In this document: piece after piece, positions 44,512 to 56,854 of the stretch
How positions within the stretch are numbered: position 1 is the first letter of the stretch
Layout of the letters: each line of letters starts with the position of its first letter
From: a virus
Lineage: Duplodnaviria; Caudoviricetes
Length of the DNA stretch: 64,000 bases
Strand: one strand, 5' to 3'
Virus record (IMG/VR): IMGVR_UViG_3300022752_000013
The notes under the pieces: model-generated
Database searches by the model: none
The model's input: the letters and a program-made list of their open reading frames with translations, nothing else
What the model was told of the DNA's origin: nothing
Translations under genes and position numbers: made by a program

Positions 44512-45411
44512 ATGTCACAACAATATCTACATATTGAGTTAAACAAGGACTATACACTTGATTTCAAAATACACAACACGCCAATGGCCGATCTTTGGCT
44601 TGAGCGTATGGACTTGCGACACCCATATCCTATAGATCACCCTGACAGATTTTACGGCTTCGATTCTCAAGAACAGGAAATTTCTCGTGCAGAAAAAATG
44701 ATTCAAGATTGTATTGCCACAATCAATGGTTACCAACCAATTATCGAGCGTGAGTTTACCAATGTATATGATCAAGACTGTTTAAACTATCTGCACAATA
44801 TTTTTGAACGATATCATGGGTTATTAAATCAACAAAAAACTATTTGGTGGCTAAGAGCCCCAAACCCTGTAAAAAAGGCACTGGCAGAATTGAATTTGGC
44901 AGTTCACCGTTGTGAAACTTGCTCAAAATCAATTCTCAACAGATTTGTATGCACCTGGTATGGTGTACCCAAAGATGTTGTGTTACCCGAACATCTCATG
45001 ATGCAATATGGAGAGTTGTCTCCGCCTTTTGGCAGTGTGTGTATAAATTACACAGAGGTTGGCAAGACATTATTGGATCTTTCAATGGATAACGACGAAT
45101 ACATTGGCGATGATGCATTTCAACCATTCCATCATTATAGTCCAGATTTTGTAGTGAGGATGTACGAATTATCACCCGAACGAATAGACAAAATATTAAA
45201 AAACATGCAAACTTACTATCAAGAACATTATGATTTTTTTAGCAGTCGCGGATTGACAGATTTTAACCATGTTAAATTACAGCCGCTAGTCTTTCCTGTT
45301 GCTCAGTTAATAGAAACTACCACAAGAGAACAACTGCTTAAAGACATACAACAAAGACAATATATTACCAGAGTTTATATAGATGAAACGATGCACCATA
45401 CAAATCCGTGA
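44512..45411 (+). CDS. Hypothetical protein
   Basis: AT-rich 299-aa ORF. No family recognised. Confidence 0.7.
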   Translation: MSQQYLHIELNKDYTLDFKIHNTPMADLWLERMDLRHPYPIDHPDRFYGFDSQEQEISRAEKMIQDCIATINGYQPIIEREFTNVYDQDCLNYLHNIFERYHGLLNQQKTIWWLRAPNPVKKALAELNLAVHRCETCSKSILNRFVCTWYGVPKDVVLPEHLMMQYGELSPPFGSVCINYTEVGKTLLDLSMDNDEYIGDDAFQPFHHYSPDFVVRMYELSPERIDKILKNMQTYYQEHYDFFSSRGLTDFNHVKLQPLVFPVAQLIETTTREQLLKDIQQRQYITRVYIDETMHHTNP

Positions 45412-46852
45412 TGAAGTAAACATCCGACTAGAAGGACTAGATCTAGATGTTCGCAAGGCCTTGGTCACGGCTTTCAAATACGAAAACCCGGCCGCACGTT
45501 ACATGCCAGCAGTGCGACTGGGACGCTGGGATGGTAAGGTTGCATACTTCCAACTTGGCGGCAGTACATACACAAACTTGCTGCCTGAGATTGTTCCCAT
45601 CCTTGAAAAGTTTGATTACGACATTGAGATAGATGATCAAAGAGAGTACTCTACCTCATTTGAGTTTCAACAGGTGCGTGAGGATTCGTTTGCACACATC
45701 ATGTGGCCTAAAGGTCACCCTGCTGTGGGTGAACCCATCATCATGAGAGACTATCAAGTTGAGATTGTGAACAACTTTCTGGCCAATCCGCAATGCCTGC
45801 AAGAAGTGGCCACAGGAGCAGGCAAAACAATCATGACAGCGGCCTTGTCCAATGCTGTCACACCATATGGCCGCAGTATCGTTATTGTGCCCAACAAGAG
45901 TCTAGTGACGCAAACAGAAAAAGACTACATCAACATGGAGCAAGATGTGGGTGTGTTCTTTGGCGATAGAAAAGAATACGGACGCACACATACCATTTGT
46001 ACCTGGCAAAGTTTGAATGTGCTGTTAAAGAACACCAAGGCAGGCACAGGCAAAGTGACCATTGGCGAGTTTTTGGAAGGTGTGGTATGTGTTATTGTAG
46101 ACGAAGTACACATGGCCAAAGCAGATGCACTCAAAACTTTGCTAACTGGTGTGATGGCTAGAGTGCCAATTCGGTGGGGGTTGACCGGAACTATTCCCAA
46201 AGAGAAGTTTGAAAGCCAATCGTTGTTGGTTAGTCTTGGACCTGTTATTGGACGCTTGAGTGCTAATGAGTTACAGCAACAAGGTGTACTGGCTCAATGC
46301 CACGTGAACATTGTGCAACTGGTTGATCACGTGGAGTATAAAGAGTATCAAAGTGAACTTAAATACCTGCTGGAAGAGTCGGGGCGATTGGACACCATGG
46401 CCGACCTTATACGTCGGGTAAACGAAACAGGCAACACCTTGGTGCTTGTGGACAGGGTAGCCGCAGGGCATGCCTTAGTAGAGCGCCTGGGTGATCGTGC
46501 TGTGTTTGTATCCGGAGCGACCAAAGCAAAGGACCGTCAAGATGAATACGACGAAGTTGCAGAGTCAACAGACAAAATTATCGTGGCCACGTATGGTGTG
46601 GCCGCTGTTGGAATTAACATTCCGCGAATTTTTAATTTGGTTCTCATTGAACCTGGCAAAAGTTTTGTTAGAGTTATCCAAAGCATCGGGCGCGGAATTC
46701 GAAAAGCAGAAGACAAAGATCACGTGCAAATTTGGGACATTACTTCCACCTGCAAGTTTGCCAAGCGACACCTGACCAAACGCAAAACTTTTTATCGCGA
46801 GGCCAACTACCCTTTCACTCAAGAAAAACTAGAGTGGATGAAGATAGCATGA
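45383..46852 (+). CDS. uvsW: Superfamily 2 DNA helicase (UvsW-like)
   Basis: MRDYQ, ATGAGKT, IVDEVH, GLTGT, ATYGVAAVGINIPRI, QSIGRG.R. Confidence 0.9.
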   Translation: MKRCTIQIRDEVNIRLEGLDLDVRKALVTAFKYENPAARYMPAVRLGRWDGKVAYFQLGGSTYTNLLPEIVPILEKFDYDIEIDDQREYSTSFEFQQVREDSFAHIMWPKGHPAVGEPIIMRDYQVEIVNNFLANPQCLQEVATGAGKTIMTAALSNAVTPYGRSIVIVPNKSLVTQTEKDYINMEQDVGVFFGDRKEYGRTHTICTWQSLNVLLKNTKAGTGKVTIGEFLEGVVCVIVDEVHMAKADALKTLLTGVMARVPIRWGLTGTIPKEKFESQSLLVSLGPVIGRLSANELQQQGVLAQCHVNIVQLVDHVEYKEYQSELKYLLEESGRLDTMADLIRRVNETGNTLVLVDRVAAGHALVERLGDRAVFVSGATKAKDRQDEYDEVAESTDKIIVATYGVAAVGINIPRIFNLVLIEPGKSFVRVIQSIGRGIRKAEDKDHVQIWDITSTCKFAKRHLTKRKTFYREANYPFTQEKLEWMKIA

Positions 46853-47499
46853 AGAAGTTGCTAGTAGTAGGTGACAGTTTCATGCACCCTGACACAAATT
46901 TTCCTGGTCAACATTGGAGTGAAATGTTGCCTGAATATGAAATAATCATGCTTTCTCAACCAGGTTCAACCAATGGCATGATAGCCTGGCAGTTTTTTGA
47001 AGGATTAAAACTCAACCCTGATGCAGTGGTGTTAGGATTCACTGAACCCAATAGAATTGAGTTTGAAGCAACTGTTGAGCAACAAAAAAACTTTAAAAGA
47101 AAATGGTTAAGCAACGGGCACACAAGTTTAACATCTGATCAAAAACTAGCGGTAGATTATTATGTTGCACTGTCTGATGATCAAATGAATCGATTTAAAT
47201 CATGTGTAATAGCAAGAGGGTTATTTCTCACTTGCGAGAGTCAAGGTATACCCTATGCATATACGCTAAACGGACTTTTTAATAACCTTCATCATTTGCC
47301 GTACCCATCAGATCCTGATGTTAACAATATATTGAAAGAATTCTTTCATAGAATGTGTGCAACCAATTTGGCCACCTACCCTAAGTTTAAACAGTCACCA
47401 GGATTTCATACAGATGACCTGAGTTGGCAACAAAGATTTGCCCAGGAGGCCAGAGAAATATTGCAACAACCCATTGACAATACTATACAAATAGTATAA
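46849..47499 (+). CDS. SGNH/GDSL-like hypothetical protein
   Basis: LLVVGDSF, G.TN, FHT near the C-terminus. Start at the ATGA overlap (46849). Confidence 0.45.
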   Translation: MKKLLVVGDSFMHPDTNFPGQHWSEMLPEYEIIMLSQPGSTNGMIAWQFFEGLKLNPDAVVLGFTEPNRIEFEATVEQQKNFKRKWLSNGHTSLTSDQKLAVDYYVALSDDQMNRFKSCVIARGLFLTCESQGIPYAYTLNGLFNNLHHLPYPSDPDVNNILKEFFHRMCATNLATYPKFKQSPGFHTDDLSWQQRFAQEAREILQQPIDNTIQIV

Positions 47500-48308: not shown

Positions 48309-48747
48309 CAAACTAAACATTGCCAACGAGATGCGTATGTTTGACCGCAAGGTTAGATCATTCTATGACGATCTCACACCCGAGGAAAAGAAAAAGTTTT
48401 CAACCTATCTCATGATACGTTGGGGTTCGGCAGTGGAGGGCTCAAGAGAACTGCAAGAATTCTATGTAATTGCCACCAACGAGCGCCTGAACAAACACTT
48501 TTTTGATGTAGCCAAACATCCTAAATTGCAGTGGCTCATGGCTACCAGTGTAAGTCCAGGATTGGGCACACCAAGACATCCGTGGATTGCGCCCCGTAAA
48601 AAAGAAGCAGGACTCAGTGCCAAACGTCGAGCATTAATGTCCATGTACCCTGACTATAAAGATGATGAAATTGATGTCATGGCACAGATAACAACACAAA
48701 AAGAAATTGACGCTTACAACAAGCAAGCAGGTAATGAAAAGAAATGA
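48301..48747 (+). CDS. Possible clamp-loader small subunit (T4 gp62-like)
   Basis: KKFSTYLMIRWGS...TNE.LNKH...KLQW....S.G....HPWI echoes the gp62 pattern. Confidence 0.45.
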   Translation: MSDKLNIANEMRMFDRKVRSFYDDLTPEEKKKFSTYLMIRWGSAVEGSRELQEFYVIATNERLNKHFFDVAKHPKLQWLMATSVSPGLGTPRHPWIAPRKKEAGLSAKRRALMSMYPDYKDDEIDVMAQITTQKEIDAYNKQAGNEKK

Positions 48748-49418
48748 CATTCACGTGCGAGTATTGCAAGAAAACATTTGCTAGAGAAACATCAATAGCC
48801 GTTCACATGTGTGAACCCAAACGCAGACGACTTTCACGAGACGAAGCGGGTGTACGCATGGGCTTCCAGGCCTACATCCGATTCTATGAAACCATGCAAG
48901 GTTCGGCCCGGAACAAAACACATGATGATTTTTGTGAATCACCTTACTACCGAGCATTTGTAAAATTTGGCAACTATTGTGTAAACACTCGCGTGGTAGC
49001 ACCGGATCGTTTTATGGCCTGGTTGCTGAAAGCACAAAAGAAGATTGACAACTGGTGTAGCGACAAGGTGTACACCGAATACTTGATTGAATACCTGCGT
49101 GTGGAAGCAGTGGATGATGCTCTAGCACGAGCAGTAGAATACAGTATGCGTTGGGCAGAAGAAACAGACAATCCCCCACATGACTGTATGCGTTATGGCA
49201 ACACCAATGCATTGTGCTATGCTGTCACAGCAGGACGCATTAGTCCTTGGGTGATTTATAATTCAGAATCAGGGCAAAAGTTTTTGAGTGAACTCACAAC
49301 AGAACAAGTGGCCATGGTATGGCCTTACATTGATTCAGACGCCTGGCAAAAGAAGTTCTCAAACTATCCAGCAGATCAAGAGTATGCCAAAGAAATATTG
49401 AAACAGGCAGGATGGTAA
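48744..49418 (+). CDS. Hypothetical protein with N-terminal C2H2/C2HC-type zinc finger
   Basis: FTCEYCKKTFARETSIAVHMC. Confidence 0.65.
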   Translation: MTFTCEYCKKTFARETSIAVHMCEPKRRRLSRDEAGVRMGFQAYIRFYETMQGSARNKTHDDFCESPYYRAFVKFGNYCVNTRVVAPDRFMAWLLKAQKKIDNWCSDKVYTEYLIEYLRVEAVDDALARAVEYSMRWAEETDNPPHDCMRYGNTNALCYAVTAGRISPWVIYNSESGQKFLSELTTEQVAMVWPYIDSDAWQKKFSNYPADQEYAKEILKQAGW

Positions 49419-49419
49419 C

Positions 49420-49776
49420 ATGATCAAAGCAATTCACACCATTGGAAAGTATATACAAGTAATAGGCGGCAGTGCCAGCACCTATGTGACTGCCCAGGCC
49501 GGTTCACAAGGAGTTGGTAACTTGCGTTTCAACACCAGCCAGCAACGACTAGAAGTATATGATGGCATGACCTGGTTGGAATTAAACTCACCACATGCCA
49601 GTGTAGGACTCAACGGAGTGGCTGAAGAGGCAATTGATTGGGCACGACGACAGATGGAAGAAGAAAAAAGGCTTGAGGTCCTGGCCAAAGAACATCCTGC
49701 TGTGTCAGATGCACTCGAAGCAGTTCAACAAGCCCAGGAACGAGTTAGAATTGTGGCAGCATTGGTGCAAGAATGA
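49420..49776 (+). CDS. Hypothetical protein with C-terminal coiled coil
   Basis: Clean ORF coupled to the next gene. Confidence 0.65.
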   Translation: MIKAIHTIGKYIQVIGGSASTYVTAQAGSQGVGNLRFNTSQQRLEVYDGMTWLELNSPHASVGLNGVAEEAIDWARRQMEEEKRLEVLAKEHPAVSDALEAVQQAQERVRIVAALVQE

Positions 49777-50333
49777 GCGCAGACATTGATTTAGATTTTG
49801 CTAATCGTGAAGATATACTGAAGTTAATTCAGCATACCCCGGCACGACAAAGCAATGGGCGAAAGCACAACTCAGGAGTGTATGTTACTAACATACCGCG
49901 TGATCCTTTTGCAGGCTGTGCATCTCTGGATTATGAAATTGCCGAACAGCGTGGATACTTTAAACTGGACTTCTTGAACATGAGTGTGTACAGTTTAATA
50001 AAGGATCCTGCACACTATGAATCGATGTTGGCAGCCGCACCGCCTTGGGAACGACTGTGGACTGATCGAGAGTGGGCACGACAACTGGTACACGTGGGCA
50101 ACTATACTGATCTGCTGGCACACATGCGACCAGATTCAATACCCAGGATGGCTGCTTTTATATCTATTATTCGTCCAGGCAAGGCACATTTACAAACACG
50201 CCCCTGGACAGAGGTGTTTGCATCAGTATGGGACGGGGATGATTCGCAAGGTTATACTTTTAAGAAGAGTCACAGTATTTCTTATGCGGCTCTTGTTTCT
50301 TTACACATGAATTTAATCAACACGTCTAACTAG
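49773..50333 (+). CDS. Miniature family C DNA polymerase (DnaE-alpha-like) core
   Basis: ADIDLDF, RKHNSGVYV, GYFKLDFL, IIRPGK and GYTFKKSHSISYA occur in DnaE order. Confidence 0.8.
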   Translation: MSADIDLDFANREDILKLIQHTPARQSNGRKHNSGVYVTNIPRDPFAGCASLDYEIAEQRGYFKLDFLNMSVYSLIKDPAHYESMLAAAPPWERLWTDREWARQLVHVGNYTDLLAHMRPDSIPRMAAFISIIRPGKAHLQTRPWTEVFASVWDGDDSQGYTFKKSHSISYAALVSLHMNLINTSN

Positions 50334-50699
50334 GGTAATTGATTTACGCTTGCTCTTTTTGCGAGCAATGTCGTTCAAACTGCATATTGGGCCATGCAGA
50401 ATTTCCAAATCTTTGTTGGCAAACGTTCTCAAGGTGGGGCGAAACGGATCCCACTCCCCGCGCAGGAATATGTTAATAGGAATGCTTCTATTGCTTTCCC
50501 ACCACCAAGTGTTGGCCAAATCTATAAATTGACGCTTGGAATCCTGGTCTGTAACAGCCCCAAAGTCGTAGATGGTGGTAATTGCATCATCACGATTTTG
50601 CACTATGCCCACATATTCGTTACTGGCGTATATGCACAGGGTTATAAACGGATATTTGTCTGCCATTTTTTGAAATAAGTCACTGCCCATAAGTTTCAT
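50313..50699 (-). CDS. Hypothetical protein
   Basis: TATAAATA on the minus strand (50706-13), 6 nt before the ATG. Confidence 0.7.
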   Translation of the reverse strand: MKLMGSDLFQKMADKYPFITLCIYASNEYVGIVQNRDDAITTIYDFGAVTDQDSKRQFIDLANTWWWESNRSIPINIFLRGEWDPFRPTLRTFANKDLEILHGPICSLNDIARKKSKRKSITLVRRVD

Positions 50700-50743: not shown

Positions 50744-51835
50744 ATGTACTCAACCACAGCCTACATTTATCAACAGATCCAGAGAATTTTATTAATAGAC
50801 ACCACAGGCGTGGGTGAGGTATTTGTTCGGAGGTGGGAACCAGTGTACGCAAAAAAACTAACAATCAACAAGGGCGTGGATAACGTGATCTTGTTTGAAT
50901 TCATTAATCAAGATCAAAAGCCTGTAAACATTACCGGCAGCAATTTGATATTCAGACTAATCAACTTACAAGGCGATGTACAATTGCTGGAAAAAGAGAT
51001 GGTCATATTGAACGCACCGTTTGGACGTGCCAAAGTCACACTGAGTGCCGCAGACACAACAGAACTACCTACTGAACCTGCCAGTTACAGCATAGACAGA
51101 ACCAGTGGCAACCTAACAGAAGCAGTATTTGTGGATGCACAGGCCCAAGCCCGTGCAGATGTGGACATACAAGATAGTGTACTACCAGAGTTTGTGCCCA
51201 GTCACACAGTGACAGTACCTACCATATACGGCCCTGAAATCTACATCAATCCTGTGTTTGCTGGCAACTATCCTGACTGGGCGTTAAATCCTCCTCCGGT
51301 TGGCAATGTCCAGCCCAATCCCGAACGCTATTCAAGTTTTATCCCCACCATTGGTGCCAGTCTGACCACGTTTCAACTAAACATGAATCATTACACTGGC
51401 AATATCAAAGCACAAGCCGCTGAAACCTATCAAAGCACCTGGTATGATGTCAGCAACATATCTTCATATTACAATCGAACAGGTACAGAATACATCAATG
51501 TGCTGGGTTATCATCCACTACTGCGCCTTGCACTTAACAGTTATTCAGGAGCAGAAATTGTAGGGCCGGCCACTGCCAATGCTCAGGCTGCCAATGGAGT
51601 AATCACCGGAATTACAGTGACCAATTCGGGCAACGGTTATCTAGCACCGCCCTTGGTTACCATCATTGGGCTAGGTGCCGGAGCAACCGCAGAAGCAGAA
51701 ATTACTGGCGGTCAAGTTAGTGCCATAAATGTTACTAACGGAGGCTCAGGCTACACACCCTCGCCGGCACAACCTACTGTACCGGCTGCAGTTGTTATCA
51801 CAACAGGGGCAGTGGTAGACATAATTTGTAGATGA
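50744..51835 (+). CDS. Virion structural protein (baseplate/tail-associated)
   Basis: BppU-like N-terminus. C-terminal G.ITGITVTNSGNGY / VSAINVTNGGSGY repeats. TAAATA upstream. Confidence 0.6.
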   Translation: MYSTTAYIYQQIQRILLIDTTGVGEVFVRRWEPVYAKKLTINKGVDNVILFEFINQDQKPVNITGSNLIFRLINLQGDVQLLEKEMVILNAPFGRAKVTLSAADTTELPTEPASYSIDRTSGNLTEAVFVDAQAQARADVDIQDSVLPEFVPSHTVTVPTIYGPEIYINPVFAGNYPDWALNPPPVGNVQPNPERYSSFIPTIGASLTTFQLNMNHYTGNIKAQAAETYQSTWYDVSNISSYYNRTGTEYINVLGYHPLLRLALNSYSGAEIVGPATANAQAANGVITGITVTNSGNGYLAPPLVTIIGLGAGATAEAEITGGQVSAINVTNGGSGYTPSPAQPTVPAAVVITTGAVVDIICR

Positions 51836-52563
51836 CATTTAAAAAAATTGTTGGGTTTGGTGACTCCTGGATGTACGGAGACGAGTTGCTGGATCCTGCA
51901 CTAGTTCAACAGCATGCTGACGCACACAGTTGCTGGCACCAAAACGATCAATATCGAAACAGTCACAACTTTTTAGGGTTGTTAGGCAAACACTACAACG
52001 TTCCTATAGAAAATTTTGGAATTGCCGGCGGGTCAATGCAGAGTTCAATCTGGACATTCCTTTGGTGGCTGGAACACGAACCCTGTCCTGAAGATTGCAT
52101 GGTCTTGATTGGGCATACTGATTCAGACCGACTGAGTTTTTACAATCCTGACCATCGCAGTTACGCCAACGATCCTCCTTGGAACAAGTTCATACACTCA
52201 ACCTGGGTGCAATATGGGTCTAGTGTTGTGCCAGAGGAATTCAGAACCATGGTCAAACAGCAACTGGTATTGACCAACTGTTCAGAACTGGCCAGACTCA
52301 ATCACATGCAAACTCTACTGTTCTTTGACGGAGTGGCTGCTAGAAAACACATACCAATGATGCAGTTTCACATTATGCCGGCTGATAATCAATTGGATCT
52401 TCCAACAGAGATTTGGCCGGAATTTTCAACCACCATGTGGTTTCGAGATCATCCTAACAACCAAAAACGAGAATTAATTTTCCCAGGCGGCCATCCCAAC
52501 GAAATTGGGCATGAAATGATTGCTGACAAGTTGATTTCTACCATAGATTCTGCTACAATGTAG
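51832..52563 (+). CDS. SGNH/GDSL-like hypothetical protein
   Basis: IVGFGDSW, NFGIAGGS, GGHPNEIGH..IA. Confidence 0.55.
   Translation: MTFKKIVGFGDSWMYGDELLDPALVQQHADAHSCWHQNDQYRNSHNFLGLLGKHYNVPIENFGIAGGSMQSSIWTFLWWLEHEPCPEDCMVLIGHTDSDRLSFYNPDHRSYANDPPWNKFIHSTWVQYGSSVVPEEFRTMVKQQLVLTNCSELARLNHMQTLLFFDGVAARKHIPMMQFHIMPADNQLDLPTEIWPEFSTTMWFRDHPNNQKRELIFPGGHPNEIGHEMIADKLISTIDSATM
52531..52559 (+). promoter_or_regulatory. sigma70-type promoter for primase, probably leaderless
   Basis: TTGATT-17-TACAAT inside the upstream gene end, with ATG 6 nt downstream. Confidence 0.55.
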
Positions 52564-52565
52564 CA

Positions 52566-53561
52566 ATGCTTGATATACTGCAATATTTGCCTGCAAAACG
52601 AAAACCCAGTCCACAAGGCTGGCTGAGTTTCAATGCAGTATGTTGCACCCATAATGGCAACAGCACAGACCGACGTGGACGTGGCGGTATCAAGGCAACT
52701 GAATCGGGTTGGAGTTATCACTGCTTTAATTGCTCATACACAGCCAGTTTTATTCTGGGCCGTACTGTGAGTTTCAAAGCCAAGAGATTGTTAGGGTGGA
52801 TGGGTGTGCCCGACAACGAGATTGAAATGCTCAATCTTGAAAGTCTGCGACATCGTAGCATTCACGGCATACTAGAAGATCGACAAAAGACATTCAATAC
52901 ACTCAGTGCTATTGAATTTGAAGATTCAGATGACTTTCCTCCGTTCAGTGAAGTGGTCACACCTGAGCATGTGTTATACTGGGATTACATACGCCGCCGC
53001 GGTGTTCCTGAAGACTTCCCCATAATGACATCGATCAAAACTGATGGGGTTCATTGGACAAGGCCATTTGTGTTGGTTCCGTTTACATATGATAACAAAG
53101 TGATAGGCTGGACTGCTAGATTCTTGGATGACAAACAGCCCCGGTACATCAATCACTCACAACCGGGCTATGTGTTTGGTACAGATCTACAACATGCAGA
53201 TTGGCAACATGTACTGGTGACCGAAGGCATCTTTGATGCACTCTCAATTGGCGGACTTGCGGTCATGCACAATACTATTAGTGATAGCCAAGCAAGATTA
53301 ATTCGCAGTCTTGGTCGTGAAGTAACTGTGGTACCAGATCAAGATGTCGCAGGTGTAGAACTGATCGATCGTGCTGTGGAACTGGGCTGGGCAGTGAGTA
53401 TACCTGAGTGGCCAGAAGGGTGCAAAGACGTTAACGACGCTGTGATAAAGTTGGGCCGACTAGGAGCCTTGCTAACTATTATGGCCGCAAGAGAAACTAG
53501 CCGAATCAAAATAGAGATAAAGAAGAAACACCTTGTTAAAAAACTACAGAGTCGACATTGA
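52566..53561 (+). CDS. DNA primase (T4 gp61-like)
   Basis: Zn-finger (C.HN...HCFNC), IGWTAR, TOPRIM VTEGIFDAL and VPDQD.AG, CKDVND. Confidence 0.9.
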   Translation: MLDILQYLPAKRKPSPQGWLSFNAVCCTHNGNSTDRRGRGGIKATESGWSYHCFNCSYTASFILGRTVSFKAKRLLGWMGVPDNEIEMLNLESLRHRSIHGILEDRQKTFNTLSAIEFEDSDDFPPFSEVVTPEHVLYWDYIRRRGVPEDFPIMTSIKTDGVHWTRPFVLVPFTYDNKVIGWTARFLDDKQPRYINHSQPGYVFGTDLQHADWQHVLVTEGIFDALSIGGLAVMHNTISDSQARLIRSLGREVTVVPDQDVAGVELIDRAVELGWAVSIPEWPEGCKDVNDAVIKLGRLGALLTIMAARETSRIKIEIKKKHLVKKLQSRH

Positions 53562-54036
53562 TCGTTGGCGCGATCAACAACTCAGCGGATTTAAGTCAGC
53601 AAGCAAAGATGCTATTCTTGAACAAGAAAAAGTTATGTTAGATTTTGTTACGCAATTTTCAAATACTAAATGGTTATGGCAAGGCAATCAAACAAACTTC
53701 CGCAAAATTTGCGACCAACATATTACTATAGACAATATTGATTATCAAGGAGTAATTTTGTTTGGCAGCAGAACGTCTGGATTATCAACTAATCAGTTGG
53801 TAGAAAGAATACAGGAGTTAACTCACAATGTGGACTTTGCCTATGTTGGAATTAATCGATACTCCATAACCAAGCATGATATTGATATAGCACTGCCAGA
53901 CAGCATTGCTGATTCCCTGGATGTAATAATGAACTACTGCAACCCTAAATTTACACGATTGCATTCTTTTGAACATGTTGACGGAAACCACATGGTTGCC
54001 GCACATCCTAGAGATTGTTACGGATTATGCAGATAA
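53533..54036 (+). CDS. Hypothetical protein
   Basis: AT-rich ORF overlapping both neighbours. Confidence 0.6.
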   Translation: MLKNYRVDIDRWRDQQLSGFKSASKDAILEQEKVMLDFVTQFSNTKWLWQGNQTNFRKICDQHITIDNIDYQGVILFGSRTSGLSTNQLVERIQELTHNVDFAYVGINRYSITKHDIDIALPDSIADSLDVIMNYCNPKFTRLHSFEHVDGNHMVAAHPRDCYGLCR

Positions 54037-54590
54037 TAGATTCGTATTCTCGGGCTGGGAGAATAACAACAGGCCAACGTCTGCGATTGTTTCATGTTGG
54101 TAGACCAAAAGTTCATGCCTGGCGCCAAACACGCCATGGCCATGAATATCCATTGGATCCGGTTGATCATTGGATCCTTGATAACATTGATTCCGTTGAT
54201 ATCACTGCTGTAGATTTTGCAGGTTGGTATTTAGAACAGTTTGGATTAAAGACAGTGTGCTTAGAATCAGACTGTATCGCCAAATTGTATTGGCCTCAAT
54301 GCCATGTAGAACCTGATGTAATGACCTGGCGCCCAACATACGTGTCTAAAGTCAATCCTGTAATATTTAAGAATCCGTGGTTTCTTCGTTACGCTACCGT
54401 GGATCAGTTTGTTGCATTTTTAGAAACATGGGTACAGTCAACAACAATAATAAGTTTTGAACCCAAGATGATACAACACAATTATCTCAAGTTCAAACTA
54501 CTTGATCTAGTGCGTCCACTGACAACATTTGAGATTGAAGAAATCGATAATAACTTTTGGAAAATATTGCCATGTACAAACACCAAGTAA
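54015..54590 (+). CDS. Hypothetical protein
   Basis: AT-rich ORF; exact start uncertain. Confidence 0.6.
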   Translation: MLRIMQIIDSYSRAGRITTGQRLRLFHVGRPKVHAWRQTRHGHEYPLDPVDHWILDNIDSVDITAVDFAGWYLEQFGLKTVCLESDCIAKLYWPQCHVEPDVMTWRPTYVSKVNPVIFKNPWFLRYATVDQFVAFLETWVQSTTIISFEPKMIQHNYLKFKLLDLVRPLTTFEIEEIDNNFWKILPCTNTK

Positions 54591-55405
54591 TTTTATTTCA
54601 TGCTGGGGCAAGTGGTAACTTTTTGGCAAACTTTTTGATTGTAAATAAGAACTTGCTTGAACCACAATTTCGTATAGATTGGCAACAACATAATACTAAC
54701 ATCTATTTTGCTGGCAACAGTTCCAGTGTTGATCGTCGAATTGTGTTTTTTGATGATGTTGTTGTATTGGATAAAATTTGCAACATATTAGAACAAGGTA
54801 CTCACCAAATAGTCCTGAGTCATTATCTGTCAGTGAGCCGACTACGCAATGTAAAAGAGGAAGTATGGGTGCGAAAGATATATCCTAAGACTAATATTTT
54901 TGGATTGATTAAGAATATACATTTTAAAAAACAAAGTTTAGAGTTTACAGATTATTCAGGTGCTGATTTTAGAACACAGATAGATCAAGCATTTATGATT
55001 ATTGCCGATCACTATCAGATAATAAAACAAGATCAAGATTGCCCAGATGATCTTACTATTGATTTTGGTTTGTTGTATAATGTACAATACCTTGTTGACC
55101 TGTTTGAATCAGTGCATGGGTTCGCTCCAGACAAGTTAAAAATAGATTGGGCACAAACTTATATCGACCAACAATTTGCTACCTGCAATGATTGTGACTA
55201 CAAAGATATGCAACAAATAATTGATCATGTGCAACCTAAAGATTTTTTTGATGTTGCTCTGGTATTGTTTATATACGAAAAAAATCACAACACCGTTGAT
55301 CGAAACAGACTATGGACAATAGATCATCTGCCCGACAATATAAATGATTCGTTGAAGTTTTTTATAACTAACTCTACAAAATACACAATTTTCAATAAGG
55401 ATTAA
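54575..55405 (+). CDS. Hypothetical protein (P-loop/sulfotransferase-like N-terminus, tentative)
   Basis: ILFHAGASGNFL near the N-terminus. AT-rich; start uncertain. Confidence 0.5.
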   Translation, partial: YKHQVILFHAGASGNFLANFLIVNKNLLEPQFRIDWQQHNTNIYFAGNSSSVDRRIVFFDDVVVLDKICNILEQGTHQIVLSHYLSVSRLRNVKEEVWVRKIYPKTNIFGLIKNIHFKKQSLEFTDYSGADFRTQIDQAFMIIADHYQIIKQDQDCPDDLTIDFGLLYNVQYLVDLFESVHGFAPDKLKIDWAQTYIDQQFATCNDCDYKDMQQIIDHVQPKDFFDVALVLFIYEKNHNTVDRNRLWTIDHLPDNINDSLKFFITNSTKYTIFNKD

Positions 55406-55408
55406 ACT

Positions 55409-56854
55409 TTGTTAAAAGAATACGGACTTGATGTCCAACGACTATTTCTAGAAATGATGCTGGAAGACGCCACAAGTTATGTGCGTGTTCAAAACATTTA
55501 CAATCCGCAGAACTTTGACCGAAGTTTGAGACCAGCGGCTGAGTTCATCAAAGAACACACAGACAAACACAAGACCATGCCCGACAGGTCACAGATCTCT
55601 GCGACCACAGGCATTAAACTTGCGACAGTGCCGGACTTGAACGAAGGCCACTTTGACTGGTTCATGGGTGAGTTTGAAGCATTTACCCGACGTCAAGAAC
55701 TTGAACGTGCTATTTTGAAGTCAGCAGACTTGCTGGAGAAAGGCGAATTTGAACCCGTTGAAAAACTCATCAAAGATGCAGTACAGATATCACTTACTAA
55801 AGACATGGGCACGGATTACTTTGCTGATCCTAAGGCTCGCATTGAGAAATACTTTAACTCGGGCGGACAAGTAAGCACAGGATGGCCACAACTGGACAGA
55901 TTGTTGTACGGTGGGTTCAGTCGAGGCGAACTAAATATCTTTGCAGGCGGATCTGGTTCGGGTAAGTCACTTGTGATGATGAACATTGCCCTGAACTGGT
56001 TGCAACAAGGACTTAGTGGAGTTTACATTACACTTGAATTGAGTGAAGAACTCACAAGTTTACGAACTGATGCTATGTTGACCAACATGAGCACCAAGGA
56101 CATTAGACGTGACATGGACACAACTGAACTCAAGGTAAAACTTGTGGCCAAAAAGTCCGGCAACTATCAAGTGAAAGGCTTGCCGGCACAGAGCAACATC
56201 AATGATATTCGTGCTTATTTGAAAGAGTATCAGATTCAAACAGGCAAGAAGGTAGACTTTGTGATGATTGACTACTTGGACCTGCTGATGCCTGTGAGTG
56301 CCAAAGTCTCACCCAACGACTTGTTTGTGAAAGACAAGTATGTGAGTGAAGAACTCCGCAACTTGGCCAAAGAGTTGGCAGTACTAATGGTTACTGCATC
56401 GCAGTTGAATCGTTCAGCAGTTGAAGAAGTAGAGTTTGATCACTCGCACATTTCAGGTGGCATTTCCAAGATCAACACAGCAGATAATGTATTTGGCATC
56501 TTTACTAGCAGAGCAATGAAAGAGCGTGGCAAGTATCAAATTCAATGTATGAAGTCACGGAGTTCAACTGGTGTTGGTCAAAAGATTGATTTGGAGTACA
56601 ACATTGAAACCATGCGTATAACAGACGAAGGCGGCGACGAAAAAGACAACTTCCGTGGCGGTGCCAAACCCAGCATCATGGATTCAATCAAGGCCAAGAG
56701 TCAAGTTAAAATCACTGAAGAAGGCGAGTCTAGTACACCACCTTGGGAACGAGCCAAGCCCAAGGAAGACTTTGATCTAGAAGCACCTAAGGTCACTGCA
56801 GATGTACAAAGTGCTAAATTAAAACAACTGCTGGGGCAGATTAAACAATCGTAA
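55409..56854 (+). CDS. Replicative DnaB-like helicase (T4 gp41-like)
   Basis: GGSGSGKS Walker A, YITLELSE, VMIDYLDL, TASQLNR, SKINTAD, MKSR. TTG start. Confidence 0.93.
   Translation: MLKEYGLDVQRLFLEMMLEDATSYVRVQNIYNPQNFDRSLRPAAEFIKEHTDKHKTMPDRSQISATTGIKLATVPDLNEGHFDWFMGEFEAFTRRQELERAILKSADLLEKGEFEPVEKLIKDAVQISLTKDMGTDYFADPKARIEKYFNSGGQVSTGWPQLDRLLYGGFSRGELNIFAGGSGSGKSLVMMNIALNWLQQGLSGVYITLELSEELTSLRTDAMLTNMSTKDIRRDMDTTELKVKLVAKKSGNYQVKGLPAQSNINDIRAYLKEYQIQTGKKVDFVMIDYLDLLMPVSAKVSPNDLFVKDKYVSEELRNLAKELAVLMVTASQLNRSAVEEVEFDHSHISGGISKINTADNVFGIFTSRAMKERGKYQIQCMKSRSSTGVGQKIDLEYNIETMRITDEGGDEKDNFRGGAKPSIMDSIKAKSQVKITEEGESSTPPWERAKPKEDFDLEAPKVTADVQSAKLKQLLGQIKQS

Follow-up and report, generated by a model that had tools for sequence, protein, structure and literature searches.

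A 186-residue DnaE-like protein of a freshwater phage as the probable C-terminal unit of a split minimal DNA polymerase III alpha

How a phage protein of only 186 residues can carry the catalytic motifs of DnaE while lacking most of that enzyme is the question raised by the locus described here. The gene, referred to as mini-DnaE, lies in a window of 64,000 nucleotides, i.e., the whole stretch of DNA that was analysed, which corresponds to positions 64329-128328, read on the reverse strand, of a 129,997-bp viral contig from IMG/VR (G000). The completeness of this contig is ~37% according to CheckV, so the genome size would be roughly 350 kb. The ORF runs from 49773 to 50333 on the plus strand, with an ATG start and a TAG stop, and its product starts with MSADIDLDF, followed in this order by KHNSG, GYFKLDFL, IRPG and GYTFKKSH..SYA. 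An earlier note on this DNA had described a reading frame with a clean start and stop and five motifs arranged as in DnaE, and both the frame and the order of the motifs are confirmed. The reading that is favored here, with a probability of about 85%, is that the ORF encodes the C-terminal, catalytic-aspartate unit of a split minimal Pol III alpha-like nucleotidyltransferase of T4-like group 2.2 jumbo phages.

The window stretch is found again in metagenomes of lake water and freshwater that come from several studies. A 1124-nt contig from a separate lake-water study spans positions 49406-50529 and a 600-nt contig from another lake-water study spans 49768-50367, each with 0 differences and 0 indels. 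As two other studies yielded contigs that agree with the ORF at every position, it is not an assembly artefact. In the RNA runs listed for the window, at most 6% of the sampled words are in common, and the pieces from one metatranscriptome are short, 90-99% alike, and scarcely reach the mini-DnaE ORF, so that RNA gives no clear indication that the gene is expressed.

In a comparison with Pfam, the 186-aa ORF matches no family at E<=10, and hence not PF07733 (DNA_pol3_alpha), and a single-sequence phmmer search against the PDB gave nothing meaningful. Among the PHROGs, phrog_11778 ('DNA polymerase') matches the ORF over its full length (E 2.2e-48), residues 3-183 corresponding to positions 7-192 of the 197 in the profile. 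Moreover, the C-terminal motif briefly matches a DnaE-like family of 1190 positions. When 1.84 billion representatives were searched exhaustively with phmmer, 359 clusters were obtained at E<=0.001, and the complete ones are nearly all 180-215 aa long. The query and 75 of these clusters form the alignment A1 (76 diverse members), in which the relatives share only 27-64% identity with the 186-aa protein. With the A1 profile, nine distinct PDB sequences were found at E<=10, all nine being DNA Pol III alpha, with E. coli 5fku_A as the top match (E 1.6e-5). The aligned blocks are residues 54-139 of the query with E. coli 539-641, and residues 152-179 with E. coli 741-769.

The fold of the protein gives the same result. 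An AlphaFold2 model with A1 as input has a pLDDT of 96 and a pTM of 0.88, and the top 15 matches of this model in the PDB, as determined by Foldseek, are all Pol III alpha or PolC (best probability 1.0). In VIA-align, the top 14 matches are C-family polymerases (Z 6.3-10.0, with 179-185 of the 186 residues aligned), and the first unrelated fold after them only has a Z of 3.5. The matches include PolC 3f2b (residues 970-1294; Z 10.0, rmsd 3.5 A, 184 residues aligned), Taq Pol III alpha 3e0d (residues 460-836; Z 9.7) and E. coli DnaE 2hnh (residues 399-779; Z 8.2). From the profile, Foldseek and VIA-align results, it follows that the homology to DnaE is real and extends over the whole chain. The 186-aa protein is homologous to the palm and the inner fingers of C-family polymerases. 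The kinship with DnaE proposed in the earlier note is thus borne out by the A1 profile, the fold model and phrog_11778, and the Foldseek comparison that it suggested returned C-family polymerases for all of its best matches. The residues that correspond to those of E. coli DnaE are the following:

49782..49796, plus strand: D4-I-D6-L-D8, equivalent to E. coli D401-F-D403-V-D405
49866..49877, plus strand: H32-N-S-G35, directly after the point of the thumb deletion
49962..49970, plus strand: K64-L-D66, equivalent to E. coli K553-F-D555, D66 being the third catalytic Asp
50172..50183, plus strand: R134-P135-G136-K137, of which R134-P135-G136 is equivalent to E. coli R639-P640-G641 in the fingers
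50259..50288, plus strand: F163-K-K-S-H167...Y171-A172, equivalent to E. coli F756-N-K-S-H760...Y764-A765 in a fingers helix

According to this map, the catalytic Asp pair consists of D4 and D6, the first two aspartates of D-I-D-L-D, and with D66 the equivalents of the catalytic triad D401/D403/D555 are present. H32-N-S-G35 is the putative counterpart of DnaE KHAGG, on the basis of the motif match in the earlier note and the DnaE sequence.

These residues are strongly conserved. D4, D6, D8, K64, D66, R134 and P135 are invariant in the 76 members of A1, at least 90% of which also keep H32, G35, K137, K164, H167 and A172. A close set of 81 sequences, composed of the window gene and 80 homologues on IMG/VR contigs that are 78-92% identical to it, retains twelve key residues, save P135 in one sequence, and the catalytic residues are kept in 81/81. 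All 80 close homologues have the ATG at the same point and no internal stops, and they encode 183-189 aa. The dN/dS among homologues, a check suggested in the earlier note, has a pairwise median of 0.10 (IQR 0.08-0.12) in the 81 close sequences, at a median dS of 1.3. The mini-DnaE gene is under strong purifying selection. Together with the common ATG, the absence of stops and the uniform length, this upholds the view of a streamlined rather than a broken gene, and neither decay of the aspartates nor variable truncation points, the two findings that would have counted against that view, were seen in the close or the diverse homologues. In a word-indexed search, the C-unit family amounts to at least 5780 clusters at 90% identity, and DxDxD lies within the first ~30 residues in 76 of the 78 full-length representatives, the chains of the family starting within ~20 residues of this motif.

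The 186 residues extend over a stretch of 381 in E. coli DnaE (~399-779), since parts of the enzyme are lacking. At the position of the thumb, from the first palm strand to the HxxG strand, ~88 residues are absent. Another ~84 residues of the fingers are absent between RPG and FNKSH, in the middle of the retained fingers. The counterpart of E. coli DnaE 780-1160 is absent as well, and with it the outer fingers and the clamp-binding, HhH, OB and tau-binding regions; the domain limits of E. coli DnaE are reportedly those given by Lamers et al. in 2006. Besides these regions, the upstream half of the palm, including the GRGS loop, is absent from the chain. As the chain begins three residues before DxD, the 186-aa protein is without the GRGS half of the Pol-beta-type palm, and a palm with GRGS loop, DxD and third Asp is not complete within this single chain. 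The PHP domain (PF02811) has no match in the 130-kb contig, in the contig of a related phage (G001) or in five cultured relatives. An RNase_T or DnaQ-type domain was not found in G000 or G001, both of which are fragments of ~40%, and the ORF at 44512-45408, which has the position of the DnaQ-like exonuclease in GAP32, has no match in Pfam or the PHROGs. The profile and fold alignments and the PF02811 search are in line with the earlier note, according to which nearly all of the thumb, most of the fingers, the C-terminal domains and PHP are missing. Its description of the protein as a miniature family C polymerase holds in part: all three Asp motifs are present in a genuine relative of the DnaE core, but the other half of the palm, with the GRGS loop, comes from a second, distant gene.

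That this other half exists became apparent from natural fusions. The fusion P0156 is 375 aa long and matches the C-unit family at residues 190-373. Its N half matches phrog_11127 ('DNA polymerase', E 5e-34) and its C half is phrog_11778, while a match of the entire fusion to Pfam PF07733 (DNA_pol3_alpha NTPase domain, E 4.8e-16) covers residues 97-207 and thus crosses the junction. Moreover, in the PDB, P0156 has an unbroken alignment with residues 319-417 of E. coli DnaE (E 3.5e-6), which leads from the GRGS loop through the next helices to D401/D403/D405. Fusions of this kind are rare, as there are three clusters compared to thousands of split forms. P0156, P0271 and P0272, all metagenomic and 375-376 aa long, have the N and C units in the order of DnaE, with a linker of ~10 residues; fusions of the P0156 type could be used as a single-chain construct for biochemistry. 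A predicted model of P0156 (pLDDT 60, palm core <50) was discarded as unusable; its input was an alignment of 18 rows, which is too shallow, and with many C units MAFFT misplaced the N units onto the C half. The match P0258 (4276 aa, 10 matching stretches) was rejected as a false positive, since it is a cadherin/Big_9 repeat adhesin for which weak repeat matches had been summed.

Stand-alone N units make up at least 7996 clusters of 172-184 aa, which are listed with PF07733 in the database and are often named 'DNA polymerase III alpha subunit' by JGI. In five lineages, the N units have a common end point, ...Y-x-L-D-x-x-E-F-(L/F)-x, which corresponds to ...FDLLFERFL in E. coli, just before NPERVSMPDFDVDF. 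As the N units end alike and the C units start at the DxD strand, the split point is fixed across the family. The sizes needed for intein halves are well established, and there is no room for them here: three residues precede DxD in the C unit, and the N units stop right after EF(L/F)x. The partner gene, the fusions and the fixed split thus single out the split replicase subunit among the three possibilities that the earlier note had offered.

Among GenBank phages, 96 records contain the C unit and 92 the N unit according to tblastn, and the counts per host are nearly the same for both. Both units occur in Rak2-like phages of enterobacteria, PA5oct-like phages of Pseudomonas, phages of Erwinia, Xanthomonas and Yersinia, and others. 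Profile searches in five cultured relatives found exactly one N unit per genome, at 34 to more than 200 kb from the C unit, and no further match to PF07733 over the cut-off. The positions are as follows:

GAP32: N unit (GAP32_323) at 247.2 kb, C unit at 213.3 kb
PA5oct: N unit at 187.5 kb, C unit at 144.0 kb
Phosso: N unit at 97.2 kb, C unit at 321.3 kb
Atu_ph07: N unit at 240.9 kb, C unit at 58.3 kb
Vibrio phage 2.275.O: N unit at 41.5 kb

In the 130-kb contig that holds the window (~37% complete), neither tblastn with the N half of the fusion nor the phrog_11127 profile found a credible N unit. The related contig G001 (142.9 kb) has a C unit at 28.8 kb that is 83% identical to that of the window, and its N unit (E 2.7e-41; PF07733 E 9e-9) is located at 124.9-125.4 kb. 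Both contigs are colinear, with 22.6-123.9 kb of G000 (in the orientation of the window) corresponding to 3.7-102.9 kb of G001. On the scale of G001, G000 ends at ~109 kb, ~16 kb short of the N unit. The colinearity map thus explains why no N unit is found in G000, as the contig ends too early. By extrapolation from G001, the window phage most likely has an N unit ~16 kb past the end of its contig. A search for missing DnaE parts elsewhere in the genome, as recommended in the earlier note, therefore had a mixed outcome: none were found in the contig itself, while the N unit is present in colinear G001 and in the five cultured relatives.

The C unit is located among replication genes. The features of this neighbourhood are:

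45383-46852: UvsW-type helicase, upstream of the C unit
48744-49418, plus strand: conserved 224-aa protein, two genes upstream of mini-DnaE (phrog_11058, E 2.6e-56)
49773-50333, plus strand: mini-DnaE
50313-50699, minus strand: 127-aa ORF (phrog_11637, E 3.4e-32; no match in Pfam), convergent with mini-DnaE and overlapping its 3' end by 21 nt
52566-53561: DnaG/Toprim primase, downstream of the C unit
55409-56854: DnaB-type helicase, after the primase and three ORFs

Upstream of the C unit, conserved ORFs match phrog_11279, phrog_11758 and phrog_11058, which have no assigned function. The 127-aa ORF is followed by a virion-structural-like protein and then by a 243-aa ORF without a family match. 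A minus-strand ORF of 120-135 aa is found in the same place in Phosso, PA5oct, GAP32 and Atu_ph07, and this conserved tight pairing might reflect a functional link with mini-DnaE. In these four phages, the order of mini-DnaE, convergent small ORF, structural protein, primase and DnaB is kept, as is the succession of UvsW-type helicase, primase and DnaB, and small conserved ORFs precede mini-DnaE. In GAP32, the N unit is flanked by topoisomerase II and a gp44-type clamp loader.

Several other genes around both units deserve mention. The 224-aa protein has a sub-threshold match to an N-terminal C2H2-type zinc finger (Pfam E 0.0034), and GAP32_280 is an ORF of similar size at the same position. 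Two plus-strand ORFs, at 51832-52563 and 46732-47499, start with (V)GDSxM(Y/H), which is typical of SGNH/GDSL hydrolases, and have no match in Pfam or the PHROGs. They flank the conserved block that holds mini-DnaE. Between the structural protein and the primase, PA5oct and GAP32 have no ORF of this GDSxM type, and Phosso has a larger hypothetical ORF. Three overlapping plus-strand ORFs without a family match (53533-55405; 167, 191 and 282 aa), the TTG starts of which come from a mechanical ORF call, lie between the primase and DnaB; because these two genes are adjacent in PA5oct and GAP32, the three ORFs look like a lineage-specific insertion. One or two genes after the N unit, a gene for a GroES/gp31-like co-chaperonin is found in GAP32 (GAP32_325) and in the Vibrio phage (NVP2275O_057), and a 133-aa ORF in the corresponding place in G001 (L085, 2253-2654, plus strand) appears GroES-like by eye.

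A family B polymerase with an open frame of ~1000 aa is present in all three cultured relatives examined (Phosso, PA5oct and GAP32). In the window, the whole 130-kb contig and G001, PF00136 has no match, both contigs being fragments. This is in line with the earlier note, in which no gp43-type polymerase was seen in the window.

The family to which this gene belongs is not new. A "split minimal Pol III alpha" of group 2.2 jumbo phages was described by Iyer, Anantharaman, Krishnan, Burroughs and Aravind (2021, Viruses 13:63, PMC7824862, section 3.4.1). The window gene is a divergent freshwater member of this computationally described family. The present results independently reproduce the published description (PMC7824862) and place the ORF as the C-terminal unit. 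In full-text literature searches, no biochemical or experimental follow-up on the split minimal Pol III alpha was found, and the omics paper on PA5oct does not mention the C-unit gene.

The nearest known relatives are the C units of PHROG 11778, i.e., GAP32_282, PA5oct gp264, Atu_ph07 gp074 and Phosso gene 437, which the window protein matches over its full length (E 2.2e-48). They resemble it in length, in the start at the DxD strand, in the invariant residues and in the gene neighbourhood, and the N unit is far off in the cultured members. However, the window protein is only 35-40% identical to these cultured members, and the N unit is absent from its contig. It belongs to a large uncultured freshwater clade, with relatives that are 78-92% identical in lake metagenomes. 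Annotation of the C unit is inconsistent among GenBank records, the labels being 'putative membrane protein' (GAP32 and CBB), 'hypothetical protein', 'DNA polymerase' and 'DNA polymerase III alpha', while Phosso gene 437 is labelled 'DnaE-like DNA polymerase III alpha'.

The window protein has in common with DnaE and PolC the Pol-beta-type palm strands that bear the triad, the Lys that precedes the third Asp, and two finger motifs, RPG and FNKSH..AYA. It differs from them in being without PHP, thumb, ~84 residues of the fingers, anything past ~779 or a match to PF07733. Moreover, its first palm half is on another polypeptide, and a family B polymerase coexists with it in the relatives tested. 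In cyanobacteria, DnaE is split between two distant genes, and intein fragments splice the halves into full-length DnaE. The phage system likewise derives a dnaE-type catalytic subunit from two distant genes, but its halves have no intein, are cut inside the palm core and sum to only ~360 aa. A functional analogy only is offered by DnaE of B. subtilis, a full-length, clamp-binding protein that acts as the primer-extending partner of PolC. The parallel is that of a second C-family polymerase beside the main replicase and next to a DnaG primase; however, the B. subtilis protein is full-length and binds the clamp, while the polymerase role of the phage enzyme is a prediction by analogy.

Other explanations of the locus have been considered. 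The ORF could be a fragment of a full-length dnaE, with the rest encoded next to it and separated by a frameshift, a misassembly or an intein-type split. This has a negligible probability and was rejected: the contigs from the two other studies are identical, the ORFs on either side are unrelated, with the one downstream encoded on the other strand, no missing part is adjacent (an adjacent one would have counted against the reading in the earlier note), the short ends leave no room for intein halves, and 80 close and 76 distant homologues begin and end alike. The 186-aa protein could also act alone as a miniature family C polymerase that binds metal, dNTP and primer-template and extends DNA. 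One chain indeed contains the three catalytic aspartates, K64 and the finger motifs, all invariant, and is confidently predicted as a compact unit. Such an autonomous enzyme is nevertheless very unlikely, because it has no helix-GRGS-helix half; all complete relatives tested encode this half as a gene of its own, and the rare natural fusions join it to the C unit.

Two further possibilities concern the activity of the pair. Extreme domain loss, and the fact that activity has never been demonstrated, would suit a catalytically dead remnant that serves as a structural or regulatory component of the replisome. The catalytic aspartates and K64 are, however, invariant both in the 76 representatives at 27-64% identity and in the 81 close sequences, and residues of this kind are usually lost in pseudoenzymes, which makes a dead remnant highly improbable. 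Alternatively, an active two-subunit enzyme could perform template-independent tailing or produce a nucleotide signal or second messenger in phage-host conflict. Many minimal enzymes of the Pol-beta fold are not polymerases. The loss of the thumb, of the DNA-binding HhH and OB domains and of the clamp-binding motif points in this direction, as does the full family B replicase that is already present in the relatives tested. Against it stand the strong constraint on finger motifs that are specific for DnaE (RPG and FxKSH..YA) and the replication neighbourhoods of both genes, with primase and helicases here and clamp loader and topoisomerase II next to the N unit of GAP32. A role other than templated synthesis is therefore considered unlikely, though less so than a dead remnant.

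For the split minimal Pol III alpha, the following arrangement is proposed. The C unit would contribute the beta-strands on which the three aspartates for metal binding lie, the Lys that precedes the third of them and the reduced finger helices (RPG, FKKSH..YA), while a second protein of ~172 aa would contribute the preceding palm helices and the GRGS loop. By analogy with DnaE, this loop would hold the triphosphate of the incoming nucleotide. As the cut lies inside the Pol-beta-type core and the ends are too short for an intein, the two proteins would have to pair non-covalently, as a heterodimer with one active site. The assembled enzyme would most likely be a template-directed DNA polymerase that is non-processive, does not proofread and is auxiliary to the family B replicase. 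If it copies DNA, it would do so in a distributive and error-prone way, given the lack of a thumb, of clamp-binding, HhH and OB regions and of an exonuclease. It is unlikely to be the main replicase, since three cultured relatives also encode the ~1000-aa family B polymerase. A plausible role would be the extension of primers made by the primase or the filling of gaps; primer extension is suggested by the location of the gene near primase and DnaB and by the analogy with B. subtilis DnaE beside PolC. Counter-evidence comes from the same deletions, as thumb, clamp-binding and HhH/OB regions and ~84 finger residues are gone, which puts in question whether DNA can be held for templated synthesis. 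The idea that the two genes of mini Pol III alpha yield an active polymerase that works without a clamp and hands primase-made primers over to the family B replicase is tentative, and we assign a rather low probability to it.

The value of the present result lies in correct annotation rather than in discovery. It concerns a family that is very common in freshwater and other metagenomes, with at least 5780 C-unit and at least 7996 N-unit clusters. If the pair is active, the minimal core of a bacterial-type replicative polymerase would be reduced to ~360 residues in two chains, compared to ~1160 in one, and giant T4-like phages would combine polymerases of bacterial and archaeo-eukaryotic type in one replication system. 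Should the handover of primers to the family B replicase also hold true, T4-like jumbo phages would run a two-polymerase replisome in which family C and family B are mixed, and the ~360-aa heterodimer would be the smallest working C-family polymerase and a model of the ancestral form, as proposed by Iyer et al.
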